64,000 nucleotides of DNA from Chloroflexia bacterium (GTDB lineage Bacteria > Chloroflexota > Chloroflexia > Thermomicrobiales > CADCWN01). The notes under the pieces were generated by a model. It saw only the letters and a list, made by a program, of their open reading frames with translations, was not told the origin of the DNA and did no database searches. Shown here piece after piece: positions 6,439 to 23,594 of the stretch (positions are counted from its first letter, which is position 1; every line of letters starts with the position of its first letter). A program made the translations under genes and the position numbers. The DNA lies in NCBI GenBank assembly GCA_039810045.1, contig JBDHWF010000001.1, positions 846 to 64,845 of the forward strand. The letters run 5' to 3'.

Positions 6439-6572
6439 CTCTCATCTCTCAAACCTGTGGCAAATCCACGCCATTGGCAGGTCTGTCGGAATTGGCACCG
6501 CTGCACAGCGAGACTTCGCTTGCCGGTTGCCGGGCGTCACTGGGCCGATCCCTCAGCCGCTCCCGATAAGAG
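6439..6572 (-). promoter_or_regulatory. SAM-I (S-box) riboswitch
   Basis: Minus strand reads CTCTTATCGGGAGCGGCTGAGGGATCGGCCCAGTGACGCCCGGCAACC...GCGGTGCCAATTCCGACAG...GAGAGATGAGAG. This matches the S-box conserved blocks, with a P1 helix of CTCTTATC/GATGAGAG. Confidence 0.92.
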
Positions 6573-7792: not shown

Positions 7793-7996
7793 ACGTTCTC
7801 CGTCCCCTATTCGGTGGTATACTGCACTGAGAGATTCGTCATTACTATACGCTATTCGACTGAATTAATGGCAGCCAAATCTTCGGCATAGCGTACCATT
7901 AGCCTGAAATTGGTCTCCACCGCTATAATGGCGCAATGGACCAAAGCCCAACAATTGGGCAGATTCCGACGAAAGAAACGGAGAATACCAAACACT

Positions 7997-9376
7997 ATGC
8001 CCCATATCTTGATCGCCGAAGATGAAGAGTCCATTCGCGACCTCCTACGAGATTTCTTGCAGGGTGAAGGGTTTACAGTCAGCGAGGCCACCGATGGTCT
8101 GCAAGTGCAGACCGCCCTCACTGCGGGCGAAGTTGATCTGGTATTGATGGACGTGCGGATGCCCAAGAAAAATGGTCTGGAGGTTTTGCGCGAAGCGCCG
8201 TCCAAGCCAGAAGGGTTGCCGATCATCGTGATGACCGCCTTCGCTACGGCGAATATGGCGATTGAAGCGATTCAACTAGGGGCCTACGACTATATCGCCA
8301 AGCCGTTCGACCTTGATCATGTGCTGGTCACGATTAACAACTTTTTCAAGCGGCAGGAACTGGCGAATCAGGTTCAGGCGTTGCAAGAACAACTCGGCGA
8401 CCGCGACCCGAAGGAGCAGATCATTGGGAATACACCCGCAATGGTCGAAGTCTTCAAGACGATTGGTCGTGTCGCTCGCTCCGATGTCAATGTACTGATC
8501 ACTGGGGAAACTGGAGCAGGGAAAGAATCCGTGGCCGAGATGCTGCACAAAAACTCGCTCTACAGTCGTGGCCCACTGATCAAGGTCAACTGCGCGGCGC
8601 TCCCCGAAACATTGTTGGAAAGTGAACTGTTCGGTCACGAAAAAGGCTCATTCACTGGAGCGATTGCCCAGCACAAAGGCCGTTTCGAACAGGCAAACAA
8701 AGGCTCAATCTTCCTCGATGAAGTTGGTGAGATGACCCTGGCGACGCAAAAGAAGTTGCTGCGGGTGCTGCAAGAGCGCGAATTTGAGCGGGTGGGCGGC
8801 ACCATCACCGTGAAAGTTGACGTACGCGTGATCGCCGCAACGAACAAGAACCTGAGCCAGGAAGTGGCCGAAGGGAAGTTTCGGCAAGACCTCTACTATC
8901 GACTGAACGTGATCAATATTCACCTCCCACCGCTCCGCGAACGCAAAGAAGATATCGCCCCGCTCACCGAGCACTTCCTCAATAAGCATCGCTACTTGCC
9001 TGGTTCACCGCCCGCGCAGATCACCGAGGAAGCAATGAGCGTCCTGCTCGAACATTCCTGGCCGGGCAATGTGCGGGAATTGGAGAACACGATTCGCCGC
9101 GCTACGGTCCTTTCTCAGGGTGGTTTGATCAGTGCCGACCTGATCGTCTTCTCCTCAGCAATGGAACGCCACCTGATCGATATCAGCCAAAAGGTACGCG
9201 ATGGCGCATCGTGGGAAACGATCATCCACGAAGCCGAGCGGGCGATCCTCAACGAAGCTCTCACCCAACACAATGGCGACCGCGCGAGTGCAGCCCAGGC
9301 GCTTGACCTGACCACCGAAGCCTTTCAGGAAAAGCTCGGTGTTTATGGTTTAGGGGGGCAATTAGTCTCCCGCTAG
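7997..9376 (+). CDS. NtrC-family response regulator (REC + AAA+ sigma54-activator domain + Fis-type HTH)
   Basis: REC domain (ILIAEDEESIRDLL...DLVLMDVRMPKKNG). Walker A is GETGAGKE and the GAFTGA-like loop is GSFTGA. The C-terminal HTH is ALTQHNGDRASAAQALDL. Start is ATG 7997 (MPHILIAEDE). Confidence 0.85.
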   Translation: MPHILIAEDEESIRDLLRDFLQGEGFTVSEATDGLQVQTALTAGEVDLVLMDVRMPKKNGLEVLREAPSKPEGLPIIVMTAFATANMAIEAIQLGAYDYIAKPFDLDHVLVTINNFFKRQELANQVQALQEQLGDRDPKEQIIGNTPAMVEVFKTIGRVARSDVNVLITGETGAGKESVAEMLHKNSLYSRGPLIKVNCAALPETLLESELFGHEKGSFTGAIAQHKGRFEQANKGSIFLDEVGEMTLATQKKLLRVLQEREFERVGGTITVKVDVRVIAATNKNLSQEVAEGKFRQDLYYRLNVINIHLPPLRERKEDIAPLTEHFLNKHRYLPGSPPAQITEEAMSVLLEHSWPGNVRELENTIRRATVLSQGGLISADLIVFSSAMERHLIDISQKVRDGASWETIIHEAERAILNEALTQHNGDRASAAQALDLTTEAFQEKLGVYGLGGQLVSR

Positions 9377-9546: not shown

Positions 9547-10194
9547 ATGAGCGAACGAACCGGACAGCCAACTGTCGAGCAGTTTGAGCCAGCCAAGTAT
9601 CTGATGAACCTGAATGGCCGTGGCGAGTATCTGGAAGTCAAGTGGCGCTTACTCTGGCTACGGACCGAACATCCAGACGCCATCATCGAGACGGAGCTTG
9701 TCCGCTTTGAGGATCGCGATGCCATCTTCAAGGCGCGGGTCAGTATTCCCAACGGGGGGACGGCCACAGGCTGGGGCAGCGAAAGCGCAGGCGATTTCCG
9801 CGATTTCCTGGAAAAAGCCGAGACCAAGGCGATTGGCCGCGCACTGGCCGCGTTAGGCTATGGCACCCAGTTTTGCCAGGACCACGAGTTCGGCGGCGAT
9901 CAGATCATCGGCGAAAACGGCCAGATGCGGATCGTCGATGCCCCAGTCGACCTGAACGCTGGGCGCAGCCGTCGCCAAGCCAGCCAGTCAGCCACAGCGG
10001 ATCAGGGCAACCAGCGCGCCACGGAGCGTCAGGTGAAGTTTATCTTCGCCATCGCCCGCGAAGCAGGGCTGGATGAGCAAGAGTTGAATACCTGGTCACA
10101 AGAACTGTATAGCCAGGATGTTGACCAGCTGAACCGTCGCGACGCCTCTACCCTGATCGAAGCCTTGCAACGGCGCCGTAACGAAGTAGCCTAA
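9547..10194 (+). CDS. Rad52/DdrA/Sak-like single-strand annealing protein candidate with an extra C-terminal helical domain
   Basis: ATG 9547 is preceded by AAGGGAG. FKARVSIPNGGTATGWGSES...FLEKAETKAIGRALAALGYG resembles the beta-hairpin plus K.A.TDA.KRAL..FG.G helix signature of the Rad52 fold. The match is by eye only. Confidence 0.5.
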   Translation: MSERTGQPTVEQFEPAKYLMNLNGRGEYLEVKWRLLWLRTEHPDAIIETELVRFEDRDAIFKARVSIPNGGTATGWGSESAGDFRDFLEKAETKAIGRALAALGYGTQFCQDHEFGGDQIIGENGQMRIVDAPVDLNAGRSRRQASQSATADQGNQRATERQVKFIFAIAREAGLDEQELNTWSQELYSQDVDQLNRRDASTLIEALQRRRNEVA

Positions 10195-14484: not shown

Positions 14485-14618
14485 GGCGACCTTCTCCCAT
14501 CCGGACTCTACCGTCGGCCCCGGTTTCTCACCGGGTCAGCCGCATCGCGGCTCGCGGGCTTGGTATCACAGCGACACCTTACCGCCGGTCGGGAATTACA
14601 CCCTGCCCCGAAGGTCAC
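14485..14618 (-). promoter_or_regulatory. FMN riboswitch (RFN element)
   Basis: Minus strand reads GTGACCTTCGGGGCAGGGTGTAATTCCCGACCGGCGGTA...AGCCCGCGAGCC...CCGGTGAGAAACCGGGGCCGACGGTAGAGTCCGGATGGGAGAAGGTCGCC. All RFN conserved blocks are present, with a P1 helix of GACCTTC/GAAGGTC. Confidence 0.93.
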
Positions 14619-14623
14619 TACTA

Positions 14624-15711: not shown

Positions 15712-17481
15712 GTGATGCGGTTTCGTTCGTTGCCCCGGTTGATCCTGATCTGGTCGCTGAGTATCGCCATTCTCAGTGTTGCACACCCCGCCGCAGTTCG
15801 CGCAGATAACGGCACCCAGGTTTCCAACACAGCCCACGCAAACCTCAGCGCAATGGCGCTCAGCCCCGATGGTGGCCGGGTCTACCTGATCTGGTACGAC
15901 TTCCTCAATGCCCAGGAAGAAGGCTTGGGCGAAGTCTATTTTCGCTACTATGATGGTGGTGGCTGGCACCCCGCGTTAGATCAAGCAGCGATCAATATCT
16001 CCTCCAGTCCCGGCACCCACAGTGAGCAACCAACGATCGCCGTTGATACGAATGGCGGGATTCATGTCGCCTGGGGCGAAGGTCGCCCGCGGAACATTCT
16101 TGAACGATACCTGCCACCAGGAGCTGACCCCGCCAATCCCGCTGCCTGGAGTGGCACCACTCTCGTCAGTAACGAAGAAGATGTGCAAAATCCGAATATG
16201 GCTGCCGATAATGCAGGCGGAGTCTGGATCGTCTACACCACGCACGCCACTGGCAACTACGAAATCTTCGCCCGCCACCGCTCGCCCAATGGCTGGGAAG
16301 GCTCGCAGAATGTTTCGCGTGCTGGTGGGCGCGGCGGCTTTGTCGGGAAGGTCGCCGTTGATCCCAGTGGCGTTGTCAGCGTCCTCTGGTGGGAGCGTGG
16401 TTCGCTGCGGTATTCTGCCCGTACGAGTGACTGGCAAAGTGTCGAAACAGTTGCCCCTTCGGTCACACAACAGAGCGGCATTACTGTTGAGACATCTGGG
16501 CGAATCCACGTGATCTACACCGAATCATTTGGAGAGAACGATACCGACCGCCGGATTGCCTATCGCACCAGGGCCGGCTGGAATGCGCCCTGGTCCAATG
16601 TCGAGATTCTCTCCGACAACGGCAATATGCTTGAACCACGCATTGCCTGGGCCAACGGGCGGATTGTTGCCACCTGGAATGATCGGTCGAGCGGGCCAGC
16701 CAAAATCTTTGTCATGCAAAACTTCGGCACTGGTTGGCGCGACCGGCAGGCCTGGACGGATGGCTTCAAGGCATTCTCACCGTGGATTGTCGAGCGGGCA
16801 GACACTGTCGCCTACATCTGCTTCCGCAATGCCGACACCGACCAGATCCATTTCTCGATCTACACCCAGAATAGCGGCAACCCTGGCCCACCCGCGCCCC
16901 CACCACCGAGCAATAATCCGGCGCAGGGGGTCGACCCAGCGCCAAACGCCAGCTACTTCGCGGAAACTCGCCACAACCTTGGTGGAGCCTTCCGTAATTA
17001 CTGGCTCGCCAACGGCGGATTAGCCCGTTTCGGTTTACCCCTCACGGAGGAGTTTACTGAAGTGAGCCCCGACGACGGCAAAGAGTATACGGTGCAATAT
17101 TTTGAGCGGGCACGGTTTGAATACCACCCTGAATATGCAGGCACTCCGAACGATGTTCTCCTTGGGCGCCTGGGGTTGCGGCAACACGCCCTTGATGGCC
17201 CAACTACCCCCATTATTGGCGCAACCTACTTTGAGCAAACGGGGCATAATCTCGGTGGTGCCTTCCGCGAATACTGGCTGACGAATGGCGGCCTCGCGAT
17301 CTTTGGCCTGCCAATCACCGAGGAGTTCACCGAAGTCGGCAGCGATGGGAAACCGTACACCGTGCAATACTTTGAGCGGAACCGCTTCGAATTCCACCCA
17401 GAAAATGCTGCCCCCTACGACGTGTTGCTTGGCCTCCTGGGGCGACAAGAATTGATCAGTCGCGGCTGGATTCAGCCCTAA
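15712..17481 (+). CDS. secreted protein: beta-propeller-like N-terminal region plus two C-terminal LGFP-like repeats
   Basis: Signal peptide MMRFRSLPRLILIWSLSIAILSVAHPAAVRA. The SD is GGAGAAGGAG. A Pro-rich linker (PGPPAPPPPSNNP) is followed by a duplicated ~77-aa module. Confidence 0.6.
   Translation: MMRFRSLPRLILIWSLSIAILSVAHPAAVRADNGTQVSNTAHANLSAMALSPDGGRVYLIWYDFLNAQEEGLGEVYFRYYDGGGWHPALDQAAINISSSPGTHSEQPTIAVDTNGGIHVAWGEGRPRNILERYLPPGADPANPAAWSGTTLVSNEEDVQNPNMAADNAGGVWIVYTTHATGNYEIFARHRSPNGWEGSQNVSRAGGRGGFVGKVAVDPSGVVSVLWWERGSLRYSARTSDWQSVETVAPSVTQQSGITVETSGRIHVIYTESFGENDTDRRIAYRTRAGWNAPWSNVEILSDNGNMLEPRIAWANGRIVATWNDRSSGPAKIFVMQNFGTGWRDRQAWTDGFKAFSPWIVERADTVAYICFRNADTDQIHFSIYTQNSGNPGPPAPPPPSNNPAQGVDPAPNASYFAETRHNLGGAFRNYWLANGGLARFGLPLTEEFTEVSPDDGKEYTVQYFERARFEYHPEYAGTPNDVLLGRLGLRQHALDGPTTPIIGATYFEQTGHNLGGAFREYWLTNGGLAIFGLPITEEFTEVGSDGKPYTVQYFERNRFEFHPENAAPYDVLLGLLGRQELISRGWIQP
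16948..17448 (+). repeat. tandem duplication of an LGFP-like module inside the CDS (16948-17184 and 17221-17448)
   Basis: ASYFAETRHNLGGAFRNYWLANGGLARFGLPLTEEFTEV...YTVQYFERARFEYHPE aligns with ATYFEQTGHNLGGAFREYWLTNGGLAIFGLPITEEFTEV...YTVQYFERNRFEFHPE. Confidence 0.7.
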
Positions 17482-17610
17482 CAATAGCGGCAGCTACGCT
17501 CCCACCCACGTCCTCAGCAACGGCTCATTGTTGCTGGGGGCGTGACATTGCTCAGGTTCGCTCGGTATACTCCCGCTACGATTGACGACGTTCAGGAGCG
17601 CAGGAGCAGG

Positions 17611-19848
17611 ATGGCGGGCACAGCCAAAGCGACAAAGCAGCGCGTACGCCGTCGTAAACGCCCGCAGCAACCGTGGCGACGCTGGGGGCGACGACTTCGC
17701 GAGGAAGTCTGGACCACCACGCCACCCAGCGTCGAAACAGCAGCACCGCGCTCATGGGTCACTCGCTGTCGGCAGCACCTGTTACCGCTGGGTCTCTATG
17801 GTCTGATGGCCCTGGTCGCTACCTATCCGCTCGTGCTGCACTTTACTACGCACATTCCCAGCGATGGCGGCGACGGACTGATGAACTATTGGGGCTTTTG
17901 GTGGCTGCGTGAAGCCCTGGGCAGCTTCCACAATCCCTTCAGCACCCCGATGGTCTATGCCCCCTACGGTGCGCCCCTGTACTTGCACACGCTCAACCCA
18001 CTGAATGGCCTGATCAGCCTGCCAGCACAACCCCTGGGCCTGACACCCGCCTATAACGTCGTCATCCTCGTTTCGCTGATACTCGATGGGTATTTCGCTT
18101 ACCTGCTGATCACCCACATTACTGGACAGCGGGTGGCGGGATTTGTTGGCGGCACGGCCTATGCCTTCAGCGCTTACCACCTGATGCACCTACTGGGGCA
18201 CACCAACCTCCTGTCATCACAGTGGCTGCCAGCCTACCTGCTCTGTCTCCTCCGCACGCTGGAAACGACCGGGAGAAGGCGTACGGGCTACCTCGTACTG
18301 GCCGTTGCCGCCATGCTCGCCCTCACCCTCACTGACTGGCTTTACGTCGTTTTTGCCATTTTGCTGACGGTGCTGGTGCTGCTCTGGTTTGTGGTCAGCC
18401 GTCGCTCAATCACCCCATTATTGCTTGGGGCCATTGTCGGGCTGGCGTGGGCAACCCTGACTGCACCACTCCTGCTCGCCACCGCTGCCGAAGTCCGCAG
18501 CGGGATCACTGATCTTCCAAGCTACGGCACCATCCGCAACTACTCCGCCGATCTCCTCTCATTCATCTTACCCAGCACGCGCCACTGGCTGGTTGGGTCA
18601 CTCACCAGCAAAGTTGCGCGCTACAGTGCAGCACCATTCGTCGAGGGCGATGTCTTTCTGGGCTTTATTCCCCTCATTCTGACACCGATTGCAATCTGGT
18701 ACTGGCGCAAAAAGGCAGTACTGTGGCTGCTGATCGCCACCTTCTTCACGGTTCTCGCGCTCGGCCCAGTTTTGCATATCGATGGCCGCTGGCAGTTTGG
18801 CGCAACCAACTGGGAAATGCCCTTACCGTATCGGCTGCTGATGGATCTCCCCGGTCTCAGCGTCGTCCGCACACCAGTACGCATGGCACTCGGCGGCACG
18901 CTGGGATTGGCCGTGCTGACTGGGCTGGGGGTAGTCGCACTCCAACGGCGTTGGACACGGCTCGCGCACGGATCCGGCCAACTGATTCTCGCGGCGGGGT
19001 TGGTCACCCTGCTCCTCGCCGAGCAACTGACGATCCCATTCCCACTGGAATCAACTGCAGTATCGAACTTTTACCAGCAACTCGCGACGAGCGCGGAGTC
19101 GGGAGCAATCATTGAACTCCCAATCTCTTACAAACGCGCACGCTCTGACCTCTACCAGACGGTGCATGGTCGCCCGATTGTTGGGGGCTATATCGCCCGT
19201 CGGCTCGATTATCCCTATCGCGCCCTCCTACCTGTAGGGGGTTATCCCCCGGCCCCGTTCGATATCTTCGCCCGCCAGACAGCGCCCGAAGTCGCGCCAC
19301 TCGCCCTAGCGTGGGGCAATATCCGCTGGATCGTGGTGTATCCCAAAGACCCCAACTATGATGAGTATGGGATCAACCGTTTCCTGGCACTGACAGCGGA
19401 AGGTGGGCCGATCTACGAAGATGATGAGCTACGCGTCTATCGGCCACGTCCTGCTGTGGGCGATGGAGCAGCGCTCTCGCTGGGTGATGGCTGGTACGAC
19501 CTGGAACGGCTCTCGGATGGGAAGACCGATATTCGCTGGATGGCCCCACAGGCGCAGTTCTTCGCTTGGTACTTTGGCGCACCATCCGGGTCATTTGCCC
19601 TGCGCTTCGACGCGATCAGCTTCAACAATCCCCGCCGACTCGAAGTGCTGCTTGATGGACAATCGCTTGGGCAGTGGCGCGTGACCGAAACCCAGCGCTT
19701 TGATATTCCGCTCACCCTCAGCGCGGGCCAGCACACGATCACTCTGCGCGCCCTTGATCCACCAGTCACACCCGCCAGTATTGGCCTCAACCAGCGAGAT
19801 TCCCGCCCGCTCACCTTCGCCATCAGCAACGTCTACCTACAGCGCTAG
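17611..19848 (+). CDS. large polytopic membrane protein, GT-C-like putative glycosyltransferase with a C-terminal extracytoplasmic domain
   Basis: A basic N-terminus is followed by more than 10 TM segments and about 230 aa of soluble C-terminus. ATG 17611 follows AGGAGCAGG. The family assignment is tentative. Confidence 0.45.
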   Translation: MAGTAKATKQRVRRRKRPQQPWRRWGRRLREEVWTTTPPSVETAAPRSWVTRCRQHLLPLGLYGLMALVATYPLVLHFTTHIPSDGGDGLMNYWGFWWLREALGSFHNPFSTPMVYAPYGAPLYLHTLNPLNGLISLPAQPLGLTPAYNVVILVSLILDGYFAYLLITHITGQRVAGFVGGTAYAFSAYHLMHLLGHTNLLSSQWLPAYLLCLLRTLETTGRRRTGYLVLAVAAMLALTLTDWLYVVFAILLTVLVLLWFVVSRRSITPLLLGAIVGLAWATLTAPLLLATAAEVRSGITDLPSYGTIRNYSADLLSFILPSTRHWLVGSLTSKVARYSAAPFVEGDVFLGFIPLILTPIAIWYWRKKAVLWLLIATFFTVLALGPVLHIDGRWQFGATNWEMPLPYRLLMDLPGLSVVRTPVRMALGGTLGLAVLTGLGVVALQRRWTRLAHGSGQLILAAGLVTLLLAEQLTIPFPLESTAVSNFYQQLATSAESGAIIELPISYKRARSDLYQTVHGRPIVGGYIARRLDYPYRALLPVGGYPPAPFDIFARQTAPEVAPLALAWGNIRWIVVYPKDPNYDEYGINRFLALTAEGGPIYEDDELRVYRPRPAVGDGAALSLGDGWYDLERLSDGKTDIRWMAPQAQFFAWYFGAPSGSFALRFDAISFNNPRRLEVLLDGQSLGQWRVTETQRFDIPLTLSAGQHTITLRALDPPVTPASIGLNQRDSRPLTFAISNVYLQR

Positions 19849-21620: not shown

Positions 21621-21656
21621 CCCTTATCAGCAGTTGCCAACCGCGGTGGGTTGGGC

Positions 21657-21694
21657 CCTTCAGTGCTCAAAACATGAGCCGATAGGTATGTAAG
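21657..21694 (-). repeat. solitary degenerate CRISPR repeat (trailer-most copy)
   Basis: CCTTCAGTGCTCAAAACATGAGCCGATAGGTATGTAAG aligns with repeat 22064-22100. It has a 1-nt longer loop, but the GCTCA/TGAGC stem is retained. Confidence 0.6.
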
Positions 21695-21883
21695 CCACCG
21701 TAAGTAATGCCTTGCGCTTTATCAACATCGGCGGGAATGACCACGAAAGCTATAAAGAACATATAGACAACCCTGAACGAGTTATCCCCCACTTGTTAGC
21801 AAAAGACGACAGTGATAAGCTTGACTTGCAGGCGATTACATAGTAAAGCGAACCCATTGAAAACAACTGGAAGGAGCAGACGA

Positions 21884-22048
21884 ATGGCGAAGGATACCAA
21901 CAATACCGCAAAGCCAAAAATCAAGCTTCTGAAGTGTCCACCCATGAAGCAGTACACGCCAGAGGAAATCGCGGAAATGAACAGGACTTGGCAGGTCGGC
22001 TTCGTGAACAACTCCAAACCTTCAACCAAGCCTTCCAAGAAGAGCTAA
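21884..22048 (+). CDS. small Lys-rich hypothetical protein (54 aa) inside the CRISPR trailer insertion
   Basis: ATG 21884 lies 7 nt after GGAAGGAG. The product is MAKDTNNTAKPKIKLLKCPPMKQYTPEEIAEMNRTWQVGFVNNSKPSTKPSKKS. I recognise no homology, so coding status is unproven. Confidence 0.3.
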   Translation: MAKDTNNTAKPKIKLLKCPPMKQYTPEEIAEMNRTWQVGFVNNSKPSTKPSKKS

Positions 22049-22063
22049 CAATATCATTATTAC

Positions 22064-22319
22064 GTTTCAGTGCTCAACCTTGAGCCGATAGCTATGTAAG
22101 TGACGTTTTAGCAGTCATCCGCTGGTCATTGTCGATGGTTTCAGTGCTCAACCTTGAGCCGATAAGGTTGTTACACCACCTTCCCTACAACGTCGGCATA
22201 CTTCGCTGCCTGTTTCAGTGCTCAATCGTGAGCCGATAAGGTTGTTACTTTCAGCCGTCGCCGTTTGAGCAGTCGGCGACTGGTTTCAGTGCTCAATCGT
22301 GAGCCGATAAGGTTGTTAC
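22064..22319 (-). CRISPR. orphan CRISPR mini-array, 4 repeats of 37 nt and 3 spacers (37, 37, 34 nt)
   Basis: Repeats are at 22064, 22138, 22212 and 22283. In the minus orientation the repeat is GTAACAACCTTATCGGCTCACGATTGAGCACTGAAAC (hairpin GCTCA-CGAT-TGAGC, 3' end ACTGAAAC). Repeats degenerate progressively toward lower coordinates, so the leader is at 22320 onward. Confidence 0.85.
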
Positions 22320-22387
22320 CCGAATTCTTAAGGTACCAAAGTATAGGCAAAAATGCCTCGCGGTAGTTGTTTCGTGGCTCTTAGGAC

Positions 22388-22416
22388 AGTATAGCCAATC
22401 AAAATCTCTCTGTCGA
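22388..22416 (-). promoter_or_regulatory. candidate leader promoter for the CRISPR array
   Basis: Minus strand reads TCGACA-17 nt-TATACT in the AT-rich flank, about 65 nt upstream of the first repeat. Confidence 0.4.
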
Positions 22417-22818
22417 TTGAGAAATCCTTACCACATTCGCAACTATACATTTGTCAGCCAGCACTCGCTAGTTGCGAAATAGCTCTTTCTCGGTTCAGGA
22501 TAGGAAAAGGTTAGAGGTACTAATATCTACGTTTGGTTGCCGATACAGTGTTTTCCTCTCACTGGAATGACAAGTTGCGAATGGCAGTGTAGGATGATGG
22601 TCTTTGTGGTCAATGCTCCACCATATGATTGCAAACCTGATGAGACTCACAGCTAACGTAGAGGTGGCGATTCCAAGGGGGATCTAACATCCTTTCAACT
22701 TGCGTGACCCCGTGAATATGACAGCTGATCGGATGGCTGGCAACTGATTCTGGCGACGAAAAGTACTGTCAGCCCGCACATTTGGCGCTGGTTGACCACG
22801 CAGGAGGCATAAGCAACA

Positions 22819-23325
22819 ATGACAGCACAGCAGGAGTACTACACGACCAGCGAAGCGGCAACAGTACTTGGTATCACCGTTGGTGCTGTGCGCAAGGCGA
22901 TCCAGCAAGGCCGCCTCAGTGTCACACGCCTCGGTGGCGGCGAACAGCGGGCGGGGCTTGTCCTGATCAGCGCCGCTGAAGTGGCGCGATATCGCGACGA
23001 GCATCCGCTCCGCATTGGTCGGCCAAAAGCGGGCACGGACGGCCACCACATCCGCGTCGTCGAGGAACTAGCGCAGAGCGGCAGTACAAGGATGCGCATC
23101 TTTATTGGTAAGGGGCTTTGGCGTGCCCTCGGTCAGCCTGACCACATCGCGATTACTGCTGATCCGCTCATGATTACCCCAGCGACTGGCGATGATGGCT
23201 ACGCGCTCGTCGTTGGTGATGGAGTGCCCCGCTGCTTCATCACCAAGCTCTCACTCCAACTCGGTACCTATGAGGCAGAGATCAGTGATGGCAAACTCGT
23301 CGCTCGCTGGATCGGGAGTCAATAG
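22819..23325 (+). CDS. excisionase-family (HTH_17/MerR-like) DNA-binding protein with an uncharacterised C-terminal domain
   Basis: The SD is AGGAGG. The N-terminus YYTTSEAATVLGITVGAVRKAIQQGRLSVTRLG...LISAAEVARY is a typical excisionase-type HTH. The C-terminal ~90 aa (RMRIFIGKGLWRALGQPDHIAITADPLMITPA...) may be AbrB/SpoVT-like (weak). Confidence 0.65.
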   Translation: MTAQQEYYTTSEAATVLGITVGAVRKAIQQGRLSVTRLGGGEQRAGLVLISAAEVARYRDEHPLRIGRPKAGTDGHHIRVVEELAQSGSTRMRIFIGKGLWRALGQPDHIAITADPLMITPATGDDGYALVVGDGVPRCFITKLSLQLGTYEAEISDGKLVARWIGSQ

Positions 23326-23519: not shown

Positions 23520-23594
23520 TGGAGCGGAAGACGGGGGTCGAACCCGCGACCTTCTCCTTGGCAAGGAGATGCTCTACCACTGAGCCACTTCCGC
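23520..23594 (-). tRNA. tRNA-Gly (anticodon GCC), CCA encoded
   Basis: Minus strand reads GCGGAAGTGGCTCAGTGGTAGAGCATCTCCTTGCCAAGGAGAAGGTCGCGGGTTCGACCCCCGTCTTCCGCTCCA. It folds as a cloverleaf with anticodon loop TTGCCAA. Confidence 0.95.

Follow-up and report, generated by a model that had tools for sequence, protein, structure and literature searches.

Organization of the array

The array lies among chromosomal housekeeping genes, at a site that runs from an MR/MLE enolase gene to a tRNA-Gly gene, in the window, by which we mean the whole 64-kb stretch of DNA that was analysed. On the minus strand, 22064-22319 comprises four 37-nt repeats with three spacers between them; a degenerate fifth copy follows in the same orientation at 21658-21694, beyond an insert (Table 1). 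On the other side of the array are an AT-rich leader and the last codons of a cas4 pseudogene. An earlier sequence-only reading of this locus had reported four 37-nt repeats, three spacers and a fifth copy 369 bp away, and its coordinates and sequences agree with ours, except that it started the feature at 21657 whereas the first base of the repeat is 21658.

Table 1. Features of the array and its surroundings, with positions in the window
Feature	Position	Strand	Description
Repeat 5	21658-21694	minus	Degenerate terminal copy; profile E=5.7e-7
Insert between repeats 4 and 5	21695-22063		369 bp, low GC
54-aa ORF	21884-22048	plus	Inside the insert, antisense to array transcription
Repeat 4	22064-22100	minus	Variant CTTACATAGCTATCGGCTCAAGGTTGAGCACTGAAAC; AGGT loop, 5' segment CTTACATAGCTAT
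Spacer 3	22101-22137	minus	37 nt
Repeat 3	22138-22174	minus	Loop CGAT changed to AGGT (crRNA orientation)
Spacer 2	22175-22211	minus	37 nt
Repeat 2	22212-22248	minus	Identical to repeat 1 (37/37)
Spacer 1	22249-22282	minus	34 nt
Repeat 1	22283-22319	minus	Leader-adjacent copy, GTAACAACCTTATCGGCTCACGATTGAGCACTGAAAC
Leader	22320-22609	minus	About 290 nt, AT-rich, homologous to the leaders of intact loci
Promoter-like site TCGACA-17-TATACT	22388-22416	minus	68 nt upstream of repeat 1
cas4 pseudogene remnant	22610-22717	minus	Last 33 codons (22717-22619), then two extra codons and a stop
HTH_17 (excisionase or MerR-like) ORF	22819-23325		Adjacent to the array region
tRNA-Gly	23520-23594		Adjacent to the array region

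With a period of 71-74 nt, the four clustered copies have the general form of a CRISPR array, that is, repeats of 23-47 nt alternating with regular, unique spacers; repeat 5 breaks this period, being separated from repeat 4 by 369 bp. The repeats are far beyond chance expectation because the pattern of their core matched four times in the window and not once in 100 shuffles, and because a repeat-profile search identified the five copies at E values of 7e-13 to 6e-7. No further copy was found in the window with that profile at better than E=0.14, and none was hidden in the 369-bp gap. Spacer 1 is itself repeat-like, with a 7-bp hairpin and then GGCTGAAA.

As the sequence-only reading had described, the two leader-proximal copies are identical (22283-22319 and 22212-22248), the copies differ in the loop and the 5' segment, and the GCTCA/TGAGC stem and the ACTGAA motif are unchanged in all five. 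Repeat 5 has a 5-nt loop (TGTTT), the 5' segment CTTACATACCTAT and a 3' end of GG where the others have AC, so that the stem and the 8-nt tag that follows it are both intact in four of the five copies. In repeat 3, which is chimeric, the 5' segment of repeats 1 and 2 is combined with the AGGT loop of repeat 4.

Repeat hairpin and drift along the array

In the repeat, a short hairpin precedes an 8-nt tag at the 3' end, ACUGAAAC, which is the architecture of Cas6-type repeats. A minimum free energy hairpin of -6 to -7 kcal/mol was predicted for four of the five copies; for repeat 3 a more stable alternative fold was predicted, and the bases of the hairpin are still present. Covariation across the repeat family includes three compensatory base pairs, in the related locus L009, and 96% of the alignment cells were paired, versus 13-38% with the structure slid out of register. 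In Rfam, CRISPR-DR19 (RF01332) matched four copies on the minus strand, repeat 1 included, over its full length (positions 1-37 of 37), at scores of 24.2-26.7 bits; as these are under the gathering score of 40 bits, the repeat is not a member of that family by Rfam's own standard.

It had been proposed that the array is decaying and that the drift of its repeats spares the stem. The pattern is real, but it is statistically weak (p ~0.02-0.08 in a test of the stem only, with about 9-13 mutational events, and p ~0.13 when copy 4 was compared with copy 5). Nor is it a sign of decay, since the same variation occurs in the older repeats of intact long arrays: in that of L025/L026 (~129 repeats), the few older variants have their changes in the 5' segment, in the loop and at a single stem position that is compatible with wobble pairing. 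The variation from copy to copy most plausibly records how the leader-proximal repeat changed while the system was active, together with ordinary degeneration of the terminal repeat, and it is not well explained as decay that followed the loss of cas genes and happened to avoid the stem.

The repeat family and its intact relatives

The 26-nt core of the repeat, ATCGGCTCACGATTGAGCACTGAAAC, has the same base at all 26 positions in repeats 1 and 2 and in the loci L001-L007, and in these metagenomic relatives it forms arrays of 18 to about 40 repeats. In L001, which is from a Chloroflexales MAG, the core repeat adjoins a type I operon of cas3, cas8, cas7, cas5, cas6, cas1, cas2 and cas4, followed by the leader (read from the array side, cas4-cas2-cas1-cas6-cas5-cas7-cas8-cas3HD). 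Close variants of the repeat are found within full loci in L008 (a 3.77-Mb genome), L009, L021 and L025. The order in the intact relatives is (WYL regulator)-cas8-cas7-cas5-cas3-cas6-cas1-cas2-cas4, then a leader of ~300-400 nt and the array, and the best PADLOC models for the effector genes were Cas8a, Cas5a and Cas7-Csa2.

The repeat family is consequently tied to cas genes in L001, with the same core, and in L008 and L025, with close variants. That relatives sharing the repeat core or the leader carry cas6 in a type I operon also upholds the earlier identification of a CRISPR array with a Cas6-type repeat. The repeat is a member of a genuine CRISPR family, which is common in the Chloroflexota and is predicted to be Cas6-dependent. 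The tetranucleotide correlation between L001 and the window (0.68-0.74) is no better than that for unrelated loci, compared with 0.92-0.95 within the window, which speaks weakly against L001 and the window being parts of one genome.

The cas4 remnant and the leader

No intact cas gene was detected in the 64-kb window, either by PADLOC on 56 ORFs or by tblastn with eight Cas proteins of L001, as the sequence-only reading had stated for visible genes. The single tblastn match was that of the L001 Cas4 to the remnant listed in Table 1, which was first recognised in this way, and apart from this pseudogene stub the array is an orphan in the sense of having no cas genes near it. A PADLOC match to RtcR/CARF was rejected; the sole sigma-54 activator among the Pfam-scanned ORFs (7910-9376) is an NtrC-type regulator with a receiver domain and without CARF.

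A Cas4 family profile built from 120 homologues matched the remnant, which translates as IHGVTQVERMLDPPWNRHLYVSCESHQVCNHMV-EH*, at E=3.2e-4 over model positions 167-199 of 199, and had no other match in the six-frame translation of the window. Such a family-specific profile was needed, as Pfam gave no match to the 52-aa fragment. At 33 aa and 17 bits the remnant is a short match, and it is significant through the profile E-value, the position and the strand taken together: it has the same orientation as the array, and ~290 nt separate its end from repeat 1, the corresponding distance in L001 being ~307 nt. It is heavily altered, with 36% identity to the consensus versus a family minimum of 61%, a tyrosine in place of an Fe-S cysteine, SHQV in place of the invariant FRRF, and substitutions at nine of the 17 residues whose conservation in the family reaches 97% or more. 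At sites that are invariant in three intact loci, the repeat has kept 16/16 and the cas4 stub 38/56; across the stub and the interior of the leader, about a third of the conserved sites have been lost.

The GC content at 22250-22700 is 44-49%. Three boxes that are conserved in the leaders of the family are retained in the window, namely TTCGCAACT, which occurs twice (at 22573-22581 and 22470-22478, each read as the reverse complement), and AGTTGCGAA (at 22436-22444, likewise in reverse complement). The boxes TCGCAACT and AGTTGCGA are invariant across the window, L001, L008 and L009 and are present in L021 as well, and the TATACT of the -10 is common to the window, L001 and L008. The array therefore has at one end an AT-rich leader with a promoter-like site, and its identical repeats are at that same end. 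Erosion of the leader is nevertheless apparent, in that the palindrome has lost its interior, the -35 and -10 no longer have their native spacing and the native overlap of promoter and operator is disrupted. A leader architecture for type I loci of the Chloroflexota can be defined from these comparisons, in which a palindromic operator-like box, a possible regulatory site, overlaps the -35; it is widespread, and the loci are often headed by a WYL regulator, as are those of L008 and L025.

The insert and its small ORF

The insert has a GC content of 45%, versus 58-60% for the chromosome, and contains a terminator-like hairpin on the array strand (21787-21765). No leader boxes were found in its 369 bp, and an origin as a duplicated leader was rejected because it has no similarity to the leaders. 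Also rejected were a structured RNA, based on a fold z-score of 0.25, and a MITE, as terminal inverted repeats were present only as weak matches of 8-24 nt. The 54-aa ORF has a strong ribosome-binding site (AAGGAG, 7 nt upstream of its ATG), is annotated in the NCBI record, where it forms a singleton cluster, and encodes the motif TPEEIx5TWQVGx5KP. It matched no Pfam or PHROG family, and its sole relative among 1.84 billion proteins searched was P0125, which has the motif twice (E=2e-4). This ORF is probably a real small gene.

Spacer targets

Comparison of the spacers with viromes and plasmids had been suggested in the sequence-only reading; in IMG/VR, phages and plasmids there was no credible protospacer for any of the three. 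For spacer 1, no target was identified in the window, the related cas and array loci, phages, plasmids or IMG/VR, and spacer 2 was likewise without a target in the same searches (phages, plasmids, IMG/VR and the related loci). In the IMG/VR scan, for which five 20-24-mers were drawn from the three spacers, only the 20-mer at the crRNA 5' end of spacer 3 was matched, in nine contigs representing about three distinct contexts, all of them tail-fibre-like genes. The first 21-22 nt of the spacer 3 crRNA are exact in those nine contigs and the other 16 nt are at random identity, so that overall identity is 23-25/37; in addition, the PAM side is inconsistent and the spacer has an in-frame stop. Given this identity and the lack of a consistent PAM, the match is not a credible protospacer, and we treated it as chance or a shared motif.

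Nowhere in the window was a spacer match found with up to nine substitutions allowed. In the gap no match exceeded 8 nt, and there was no spacer complementarity to the 54-aa ORF or to its upstream region. A CreTA-like or other regulatory module was rejected on these grounds. An anti-cas orphan array was also rejected, since no spacer had a match of at least 13 nt to the cas operons of L001, L008, L009 or L010.

Origin of the array

Because the cas4 remnant and the homologous leader directly abut it, we consider the array to be, with a probability of about three in four, the stump of a type I CRISPR-Cas locus that stood on the chromosome, belonged to a family common in the Chloroflexota and was lost in place. 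All that preceded the final 33 codons of cas4 would have been deleted in the window, and what is left over would be the decayed cas4 end, the partly eroded leader, the four repeats with three spacers, the foreign-looking insert and the degenerate terminal repeat. The leader promoter could still give a minus-strand pre-crRNA, in which Cas6 would be expected to cut at the 3' base of the GCUCA/UGAGC hairpin of each repeat and so leave ACUGAAAC as the 5' tag. As the 64 kb contain no gene for Cas6, Cascade or Cas1-Cas2, the array is locally inert, and within that scope it is most likely a relic. Of the origins that the sequence-only reading had listed (dependence on a distant cas locus, a relic, or carriage by a mobile element), the relic is thus favoured by the abutting remnant and leader and the mobile element is not. 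One contrast counts against regarding the stump as a relic, namely that the cas4 stub is heavily decayed and repeats 1 and 2 are pristine, as the parts of a long-dead locus should decay alike. This would mean that cas4 was inactivated long before the other genes of the operon were deleted, unless use in trans or gene conversion still maintains the repeats.

Use in trans corresponds to a possible but doubtful reading, in which the array has the same stump origin and is a functional orphan, still transcribed and perhaps still extended, whose crRNAs are used by a cognate type I system elsewhere. It would account for the perfection of repeats 1 and 2 (26/26 in the core, 37/37 to each other) beside a decayed stub and leader interior, and the retention of three leader boxes, a good promoter-like site and the stem and tag of four copies is consistent with it. 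However, there is no cas gene within 64 kb, there are merely three spacers, none with a detectable target, and the native promoter/operator overlap of the leader is disrupted. Furthermore, a search of species-representative genomes, among which the genome of the window itself may not be included, found the repeat in only one further record; this MAG carries another variant of it and has a tetranucleotide signature no closer to the window than those of unrelated loci. For the insert and the variant repeats 4 and 5, an unlikely explanation is that a mobile element or a long piece of DNA came in at a repeat and was later lost for the most part, with one small gene remaining; its entry could have happened through homologous recombination with an element-borne repeat (a solitary repeat unit) or aberrant, repeat-duplicating integration by Cas1-Cas2. 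The insert has a full-length repeat exactly at each end, both with the derived 5' segment CTTACATA(G/C)CTAT, it is of low GC in a chromosome of 58-60%, its small gene has a strong ribosome-binding site and one remote motif relative only, repeat 3 is chimeric between two repeat types, and integration via solitary repeat units has already been proposed (reviewed in PMC8616872). On the other hand, it lacks terminal inverted repeats, an integrase, a transposase and any similarity to phages, plasmids or viral contigs; the low GC extends beyond it over the whole array and leader; adjacent old repeats share derived bases through normal array growth anyway; and a plain insertion into a former spacer fits the evidence equally. 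A combination of the two, in which a distant cas locus keeps the leader-proximal repeats of a live array perfect and the insert is foreign, gene-sized DNA captured at a repeat, appears distinctly improbable; if true, the transcribed array would carry an antisense copy of a small foreign gene.

We regard it as very unlikely that this is a mini-array of a virus, plasmid or island, or a regulatory module of the CreTA or anti-cas type. The array is very small, the HTH_17 ORF and tRNA-Gly are adjacent and a small ORF lies between degenerate repeats, all of which count in favour of this reading, but neither an integrase nor a duplication of the tRNA end (att) was found, the repeat is absent from the 2.9 million viral contigs of IMG/VR and from phages and plasmids, and the region 21621-22818 matched no phage or plasmid. 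The leader and cas4 stub are instead homologous to chromosomal cas loci, the neighbours are housekeeping genes, and no spacer matches the small ORF, its upstream region (at most 8 nt in the gap) or the cas genes of L001, L008, L009 and L010. The proposal of a mini-array borne by a mobile element was therefore rejected. Dispersed repeats of a non-CRISPR family, which the sequence-only reading had named as the other way in which it could fail, can practically be dismissed, and so can tandem ones: the low copy number in the window would suit them and nothing else does, given the 71-74 nt periodicity with unique spacers, the single cluster in the window and the presence of the same repeat in long arrays and beside cas operons.

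Comparison with known systems

The loss of CRISPR-Cas is itself routine, and orphan or degenerate arrays are well documented; the locus described here, as the probable stump of a locus lost in place, is a clean and datable case. Because the cas4 stub, leader and array are contiguous and share one history, their unequal decay could serve as an internal clock for selection on orphaned arrays. The repeat-bounded, gene-bearing insert is a small curiosity that may bear on the entry of foreign DNA into arrays. It resembles CreTA, viral mini-arrays and solitary repeat units in that an element other than a spacer lies between degenerate repeats and a small gene stands beside CRISPR-like repeats. Unlike in CreTA and the viral mini-arrays, no spacer in the window is complementary to the small gene, the 369-bp element is not of spacer length, and the array is not on a mobile element.

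With the intact loci L001, L008, L009, L021 and L025, the window shares the repeat core or its architecture (a hairpin followed by ACUGAAAC), the boxes TTCGCAACT and AGTTGCGAA, the TATACT -10 and the last place of cas4 in the gene order, ahead of the leader. It differs from them in having 33 decayed cas4 codons as its only trace of cas genes, 4-5 repeats rather than 35 to about 130, an altered leader interior and promoter spacing, and a gene-bearing 369-bp insert in the array. Orphan or degenerate arrays that remain after cas loss have been described as the I-F CRISPR4 of E. coli and the CRISPR2 of E. faecalis (PMC8616872; see also PMC4580645). Like these, the array in the window is small and chromosomal, with a leader, a degenerate terminal repeat and no adjacent cas operon. 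The CRISPR4 of E. coli contains anti-cas spacers, whereas none were found here, and use in trans, which has been shown for the CRISPR2 of E. faecalis, is possible but doubtful for the array in the window. Among these orphan arrays, the one in the window alone has a recognisable 3' remnant of cas4, which documents that the deletion occurred in place.

The array and its repeat family

The five repeats form a real CRISPR array, best read, on sequence comparison, as the stump that remained when a type I locus was lost in place. The sequence-only reading had described the region as five copies differing in their loops, their 5' segments and a terminal GG, and that description was borne out (see table); the array spacers are 34, 37 and 37 nt long. 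The repeat core gave four matches in the window versus none in 100 shuffles, and a repeat profile run on the whole window recovered exactly these five, with E values between 7e-13 and 6e-7. In the rest of the window, including the 369-bp gap between copies 4 and 5, the best other match had E=0.14 and there were no hidden copies. The Rfam model CRISPR-DR19 matched the repeats at full length on the minus strand with 24-27 bits, which is below its threshold of 40.

Features of the array region and riboswitches elsewhere in the window (window positions; copies numbered from the leader)
Feature	Position	Strand	Remarks
Copies 1 and 2	22283-22319, 22212-22248	minus	GTAACAACCTTATCGGCTCACGATTGAGCACTGAAAC in crRNA orientation, mutually identical
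Copy 3	22138-22174	minus	Loop AGGT the sole difference from copies 1 and 2
Copy 4	22064-22100	minus	Loop AGGT and 5' segment CTTACATAGCTAT
Copy 5	21658-21694	minus	369 bp beyond copy 4; CTTACATACCTAT; 5-nt loop TGTTT; 3' end GG not AC
54-aa ORF	21884-22048	plus (opposite array)	AAGGAG 7 nt upstream of ATG; annotated in NCBI record
Leader	22320-22609	minus (array strand)	290 nt upstream of copy 1; AT-rich
Leader boxes	22436-22444, 22470-22478, 22573-22581
cas4 stub	22717-22619	minus	Translation IHGVTQVERMLDPPWNRHLYVSCESHQVCNHMV
FMN riboswitch	14485-14619	minus	121 bits
SAM/S-box riboswitch	6439-6572	minus	72.7 bits; upstream of SAM synthetase and AdoHcy hydrolase region

When one genome per species was scanned, the repeat core turned up in a single further record, L001, which is a Chloroflexales MAG. 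Its order on the array strand is repeat, leader, cas4, cas2, cas1, cas6, cas5, cas7 (DevR/Csa2), cas8 and the cas3 HD domain. A second scan, of metagenomes, returned six further loci, three of which had arrays of 18, 19 and ~40 repeats and the other three short or partial arrays. Among the repeat-core loci the 26 nt ATCGGCTCACGATTGAGCACTGAAAC were invariant and variation was confined to the first 11 nt. Transposase genes have inserted at or in two of the metagenome arrays (an ISL3-like C-terminus in L006 and a DDE-type gene in L007), and IS disruption is thus a recurrent event for arrays of this repeat family.

The L001 Cas4 proved to have abundant homologues, 1524 proteins at E<=1e-10, and these led to loci with complete operons. 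In one of these, L008, from a 3.77-Mb genome, the order is WYL regulator, cas8, cas7, cas5, cas3, cas6, cas1, cas2, cas4, leader and an array of >92 repeats of GCTTCAACCACATCGGCTCAAGATTGAGCACTGAAAC; the loci L009/L010, L021 and L025/L026 resemble it. The best PADLOC models for the relatives' cas genes were Cas8a, Cas5a, Cas7 (I-A/Csa2), Cas3a1, Cas6 and Cas1b, and on this basis we class the system as type I (I-A/I-B kind), with the subtype left uncommitted. Compensatory changes preserve the hairpin throughout the family (GCTCA/TGAGC, GCCTG/CAGGC, ATCC/GGAT), with three both-side stem changes in L009 and further evidence from L025, and the tag ACTGAAAC is invariant. The window repeat is a member of a genuine CRISPR repeat family. 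Repeats of this family stand beside cas6-bearing operons, and the Cas6-type repeat architecture proposed earlier is therefore supported by genomic company.

A cas4 remnant and a leader beside the array

The eight L001 Cas proteins were compared with the whole window by tblastn, and the sole notable match was to the C-terminus of Cas4, exactly where cas4 ends ahead of the leader in the intact loci. A Cas4 profile built from 120 homologues was also run on the window's full set of 2105 six-frame fragments. This stub was its single match (E=3.2e-4), aligning to model positions 167-199 of 199, and the second-ranked fragment reached E ~1. The stub shares 36% identity with the family consensus; no homologue falls below 61%, and their median is 85%. 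Nine residues of the stub are unseen in all 120 homologues, among them a Tyr in place of a cysteine of the Fe-S cluster and SHQV in place of the invariant FRRF. There is an in-frame stop upstream of the stub, and no Cas4 homology continues upstream past model position 167. The cas operon would formerly have stood between the stub and tRNA-Gly (23520-23594). A PADLOC scan of the 56 window ORFs found no Cas families, and the earlier statement that the 64-kb window has no cas gene holds for intact genes, the stub detected by tblastn being all that was seen. The expected operon site is filled by an ORFan of 168 aa (22819-23325, plus strand) that adjoins the tRNA-Gly(GCC) gene; its N-terminal domain is HTH_17 (excisionase or MerR-like), and it had no homologues at E<=1e-3 in a search of 5.8 billion proteins.

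The sequence-only reading was right about the array itself and overlooked both the stub and the adjoining leader, the latter found by leader alignment. Three boxes, TTCGCAACT, TTCGCAACT and AGTTGCGAA, occur in the same order in the window, L001, L008 and L009 leaders, and these four leaders do not differ in the arms TCGCAACT and AGTTGCGA; the L021 leader also carries the boxes. A promoter-like TCGACA-17-TATACT is present on the array strand within the window leader. In the family leaders (L001, L008, L009, L021) the box TTCGCAACT is followed by a palindrome, TTCGCAACTTGACACG..TTGGCGCAAAAA.CGAGTTGCGAA, whose right arm supplies the -35 of TTGCGA-17/18-TATACT. A WYL-domain regulator gene is the first gene of the L008 and L025 loci, and the palindrome is a possible operator. 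The window leader preserves the arms of the palindrome and has lost its interior and spacing.

Uneven decay and repeat drift

The stub, leader and repeats are contiguous in the window and have been preserved to different extents. Judged by sites invariant across L001, L008 and L009, the first repeat is intact (16 of 16 retained), the leader box region retains 19 of 29, with its arms preserved and its interior lost, and the stub retains 38 of 56. The stub also has substitutions at nine of the 17 Cas4 positions that are nearly invariant in the family. We infer a post-inactivation divergence of the stub of at least ~0.18 substitutions per site, at which two 37-nt repeats coexisting since cas4 inactivation should no longer match fully. 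It is possible that cas4 died early, well before deletion of the remaining operon, and that the system worked on without it. Continuing selection or gene conversion of the repeats, by way of another cas locus or array elsewhere in the genome, is also conceivable; there was no sign that L001 and the window come from one genome. Alternatively, the ancestral cas4 of this locus might have been unusually divergent from the outset.

Repeat drift that spares the hairpin stem had been put forward as a mark of decay. As a description this is true, there being no stem differences, but the statistical case is thin. For ~13 independent mutational events and 10 stem positions the chance of missing the stem is (27/37)^13 ~0.017; with the 5' segment taken as one event (~8 events) p is ~0.08, and for copy 4 versus copy 5 (six differences, none in the stem) p is ~0.13. 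More tellingly, the window repeats vary in the loop and the first 11 nt, just where members of the family differ between species. The array of L025/L026, with ~129 repeats beside a full cas operon, has a few variant older repeats that differ in these places too, with changes in the 5' segment, at one loop base and, in one case, from C to T in the stem with a G-U pair kept. During Cas1-Cas2 integration new repeats are copies of the leader-proximal repeat, and an array therefore preserves earlier versions of that repeat, so far as they were compatible with Cas6 and Cascade. The window pattern is the look of an active family array plus a typical degenerate terminal repeat, and as evidence on decay it points neither way. 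In copy 3 the new 5' segment is combined with the old loop, a chimera that stepwise change or within-array recombination could equally have produced.

The 369-bp gap and the spacers

The gap has low GC and is bounded exactly by two full-length repeats, copies 4 and 5, that have derived bases in common. Neither the leader nor any of the fetched loci was significantly similar to it, and it had no notable structure and no convincing terminal inverted repeats. The extra DNA could have been inserted into what was once a spacer, or have come in by recombination with a repeat on a mobile element or by aberrant integration at a repeat. The best match of the gap, 16 nt exact and inverted between 21963-21978 (in the small ORF) and 9794-9809 (blastn-short E=0.006), is probably due to chance. 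The 54-aa ORF is probably a real gene. Among 1.84 billion representative proteins it had one relative (P0125, 124 aa, E=2e-4), encoded at 538-912 of an uninformative 2-kb contig (L011). The 26-aa motif TPEE(I/M)x5(S/T)WxVGx5KP is present in the ORF and twice in P0125; it is apparently a small domain that has not been described, and it had no match in Pfam or PHROG.

The spacers had no self-matches in the whole window with up to nine substitutions and no matches to phages or plasmids. Since E. coli CRISPR4 offers a precedent for anti-cas spacers (PMC8616872), they were also compared with the cognate cas operons, with no match. In IMG/VR only spacer 3 matched exactly, over its 5' 21-22 nt (crRNA orientation; window 22101-22121), in nine contigs (L012-L020) representing ~3 sequence contexts, at a conserved stretch of tail-fibre-like genes that encodes the motif DPLVIVD. 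This partial virome match was not accepted as a protospacer: the other 16 nt are at random identity, the spacer has an in-frame stop and the PAM side is inconsistent from contig to contig. Spacer 1 (22249-22282), CAGTCGCCGACTGCTCAAACGGCGACGGCTGAAA in crRNA orientation, has a perfect 7-bp hairpin (GTCGCCG/CGGCGAC) and then GGCTGAAA; on the plus strand it starts with TTTCAG, and its TGAGC is at nearly the offset of that of a true repeat. It resembles a CRISPR repeat from a different family and may have been acquired from another array; it had no database match.

Chromosomal setting

Housekeeping functions surround the array: the neighbours include genes for an enolase-family protein (MR/MLE), an MFS transporter, altronate dehydratase, SAM synthetase, AdoHcy hydrolase, DHQ synthase, TPP enzymes and others, together with the FMN and SAM riboswitches. 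The window's proteins are singletons in their NCBI record. Two large adjacent ORFs on the plus strand, 15712-17481 (589 aa) and 17542-19848 (768 aa), lie 2-6 kb from the array and had no Pfam or PADLOC family. PADLOC models for RtcR (CARF_AAA_HTH) reached E=7e-115 on one window ORF, which looks like a false positive through the common AAA+ domain; it is best explained by the NtrC-type sigma-54 activator at 7910-9376 (plus strand), which has a receiver domain, lacks CARF and is the only such activator among the Pfam-scanned ORFs. Further weak PADLOC matches were to mad1/3/8, AriA, SduA and SspA/DndA. The repeat was absent from 2.9 million viral contigs, the region 21621-22818 had no similarity to phage and plasmid records, and no duplication of the tRNA end was found. 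Given these negatives and the chromosomal neighbours, the option of a mini-array borne by a mobile element is therefore unsupported. A stump array left after cas loss is a kind of feature that is already known.
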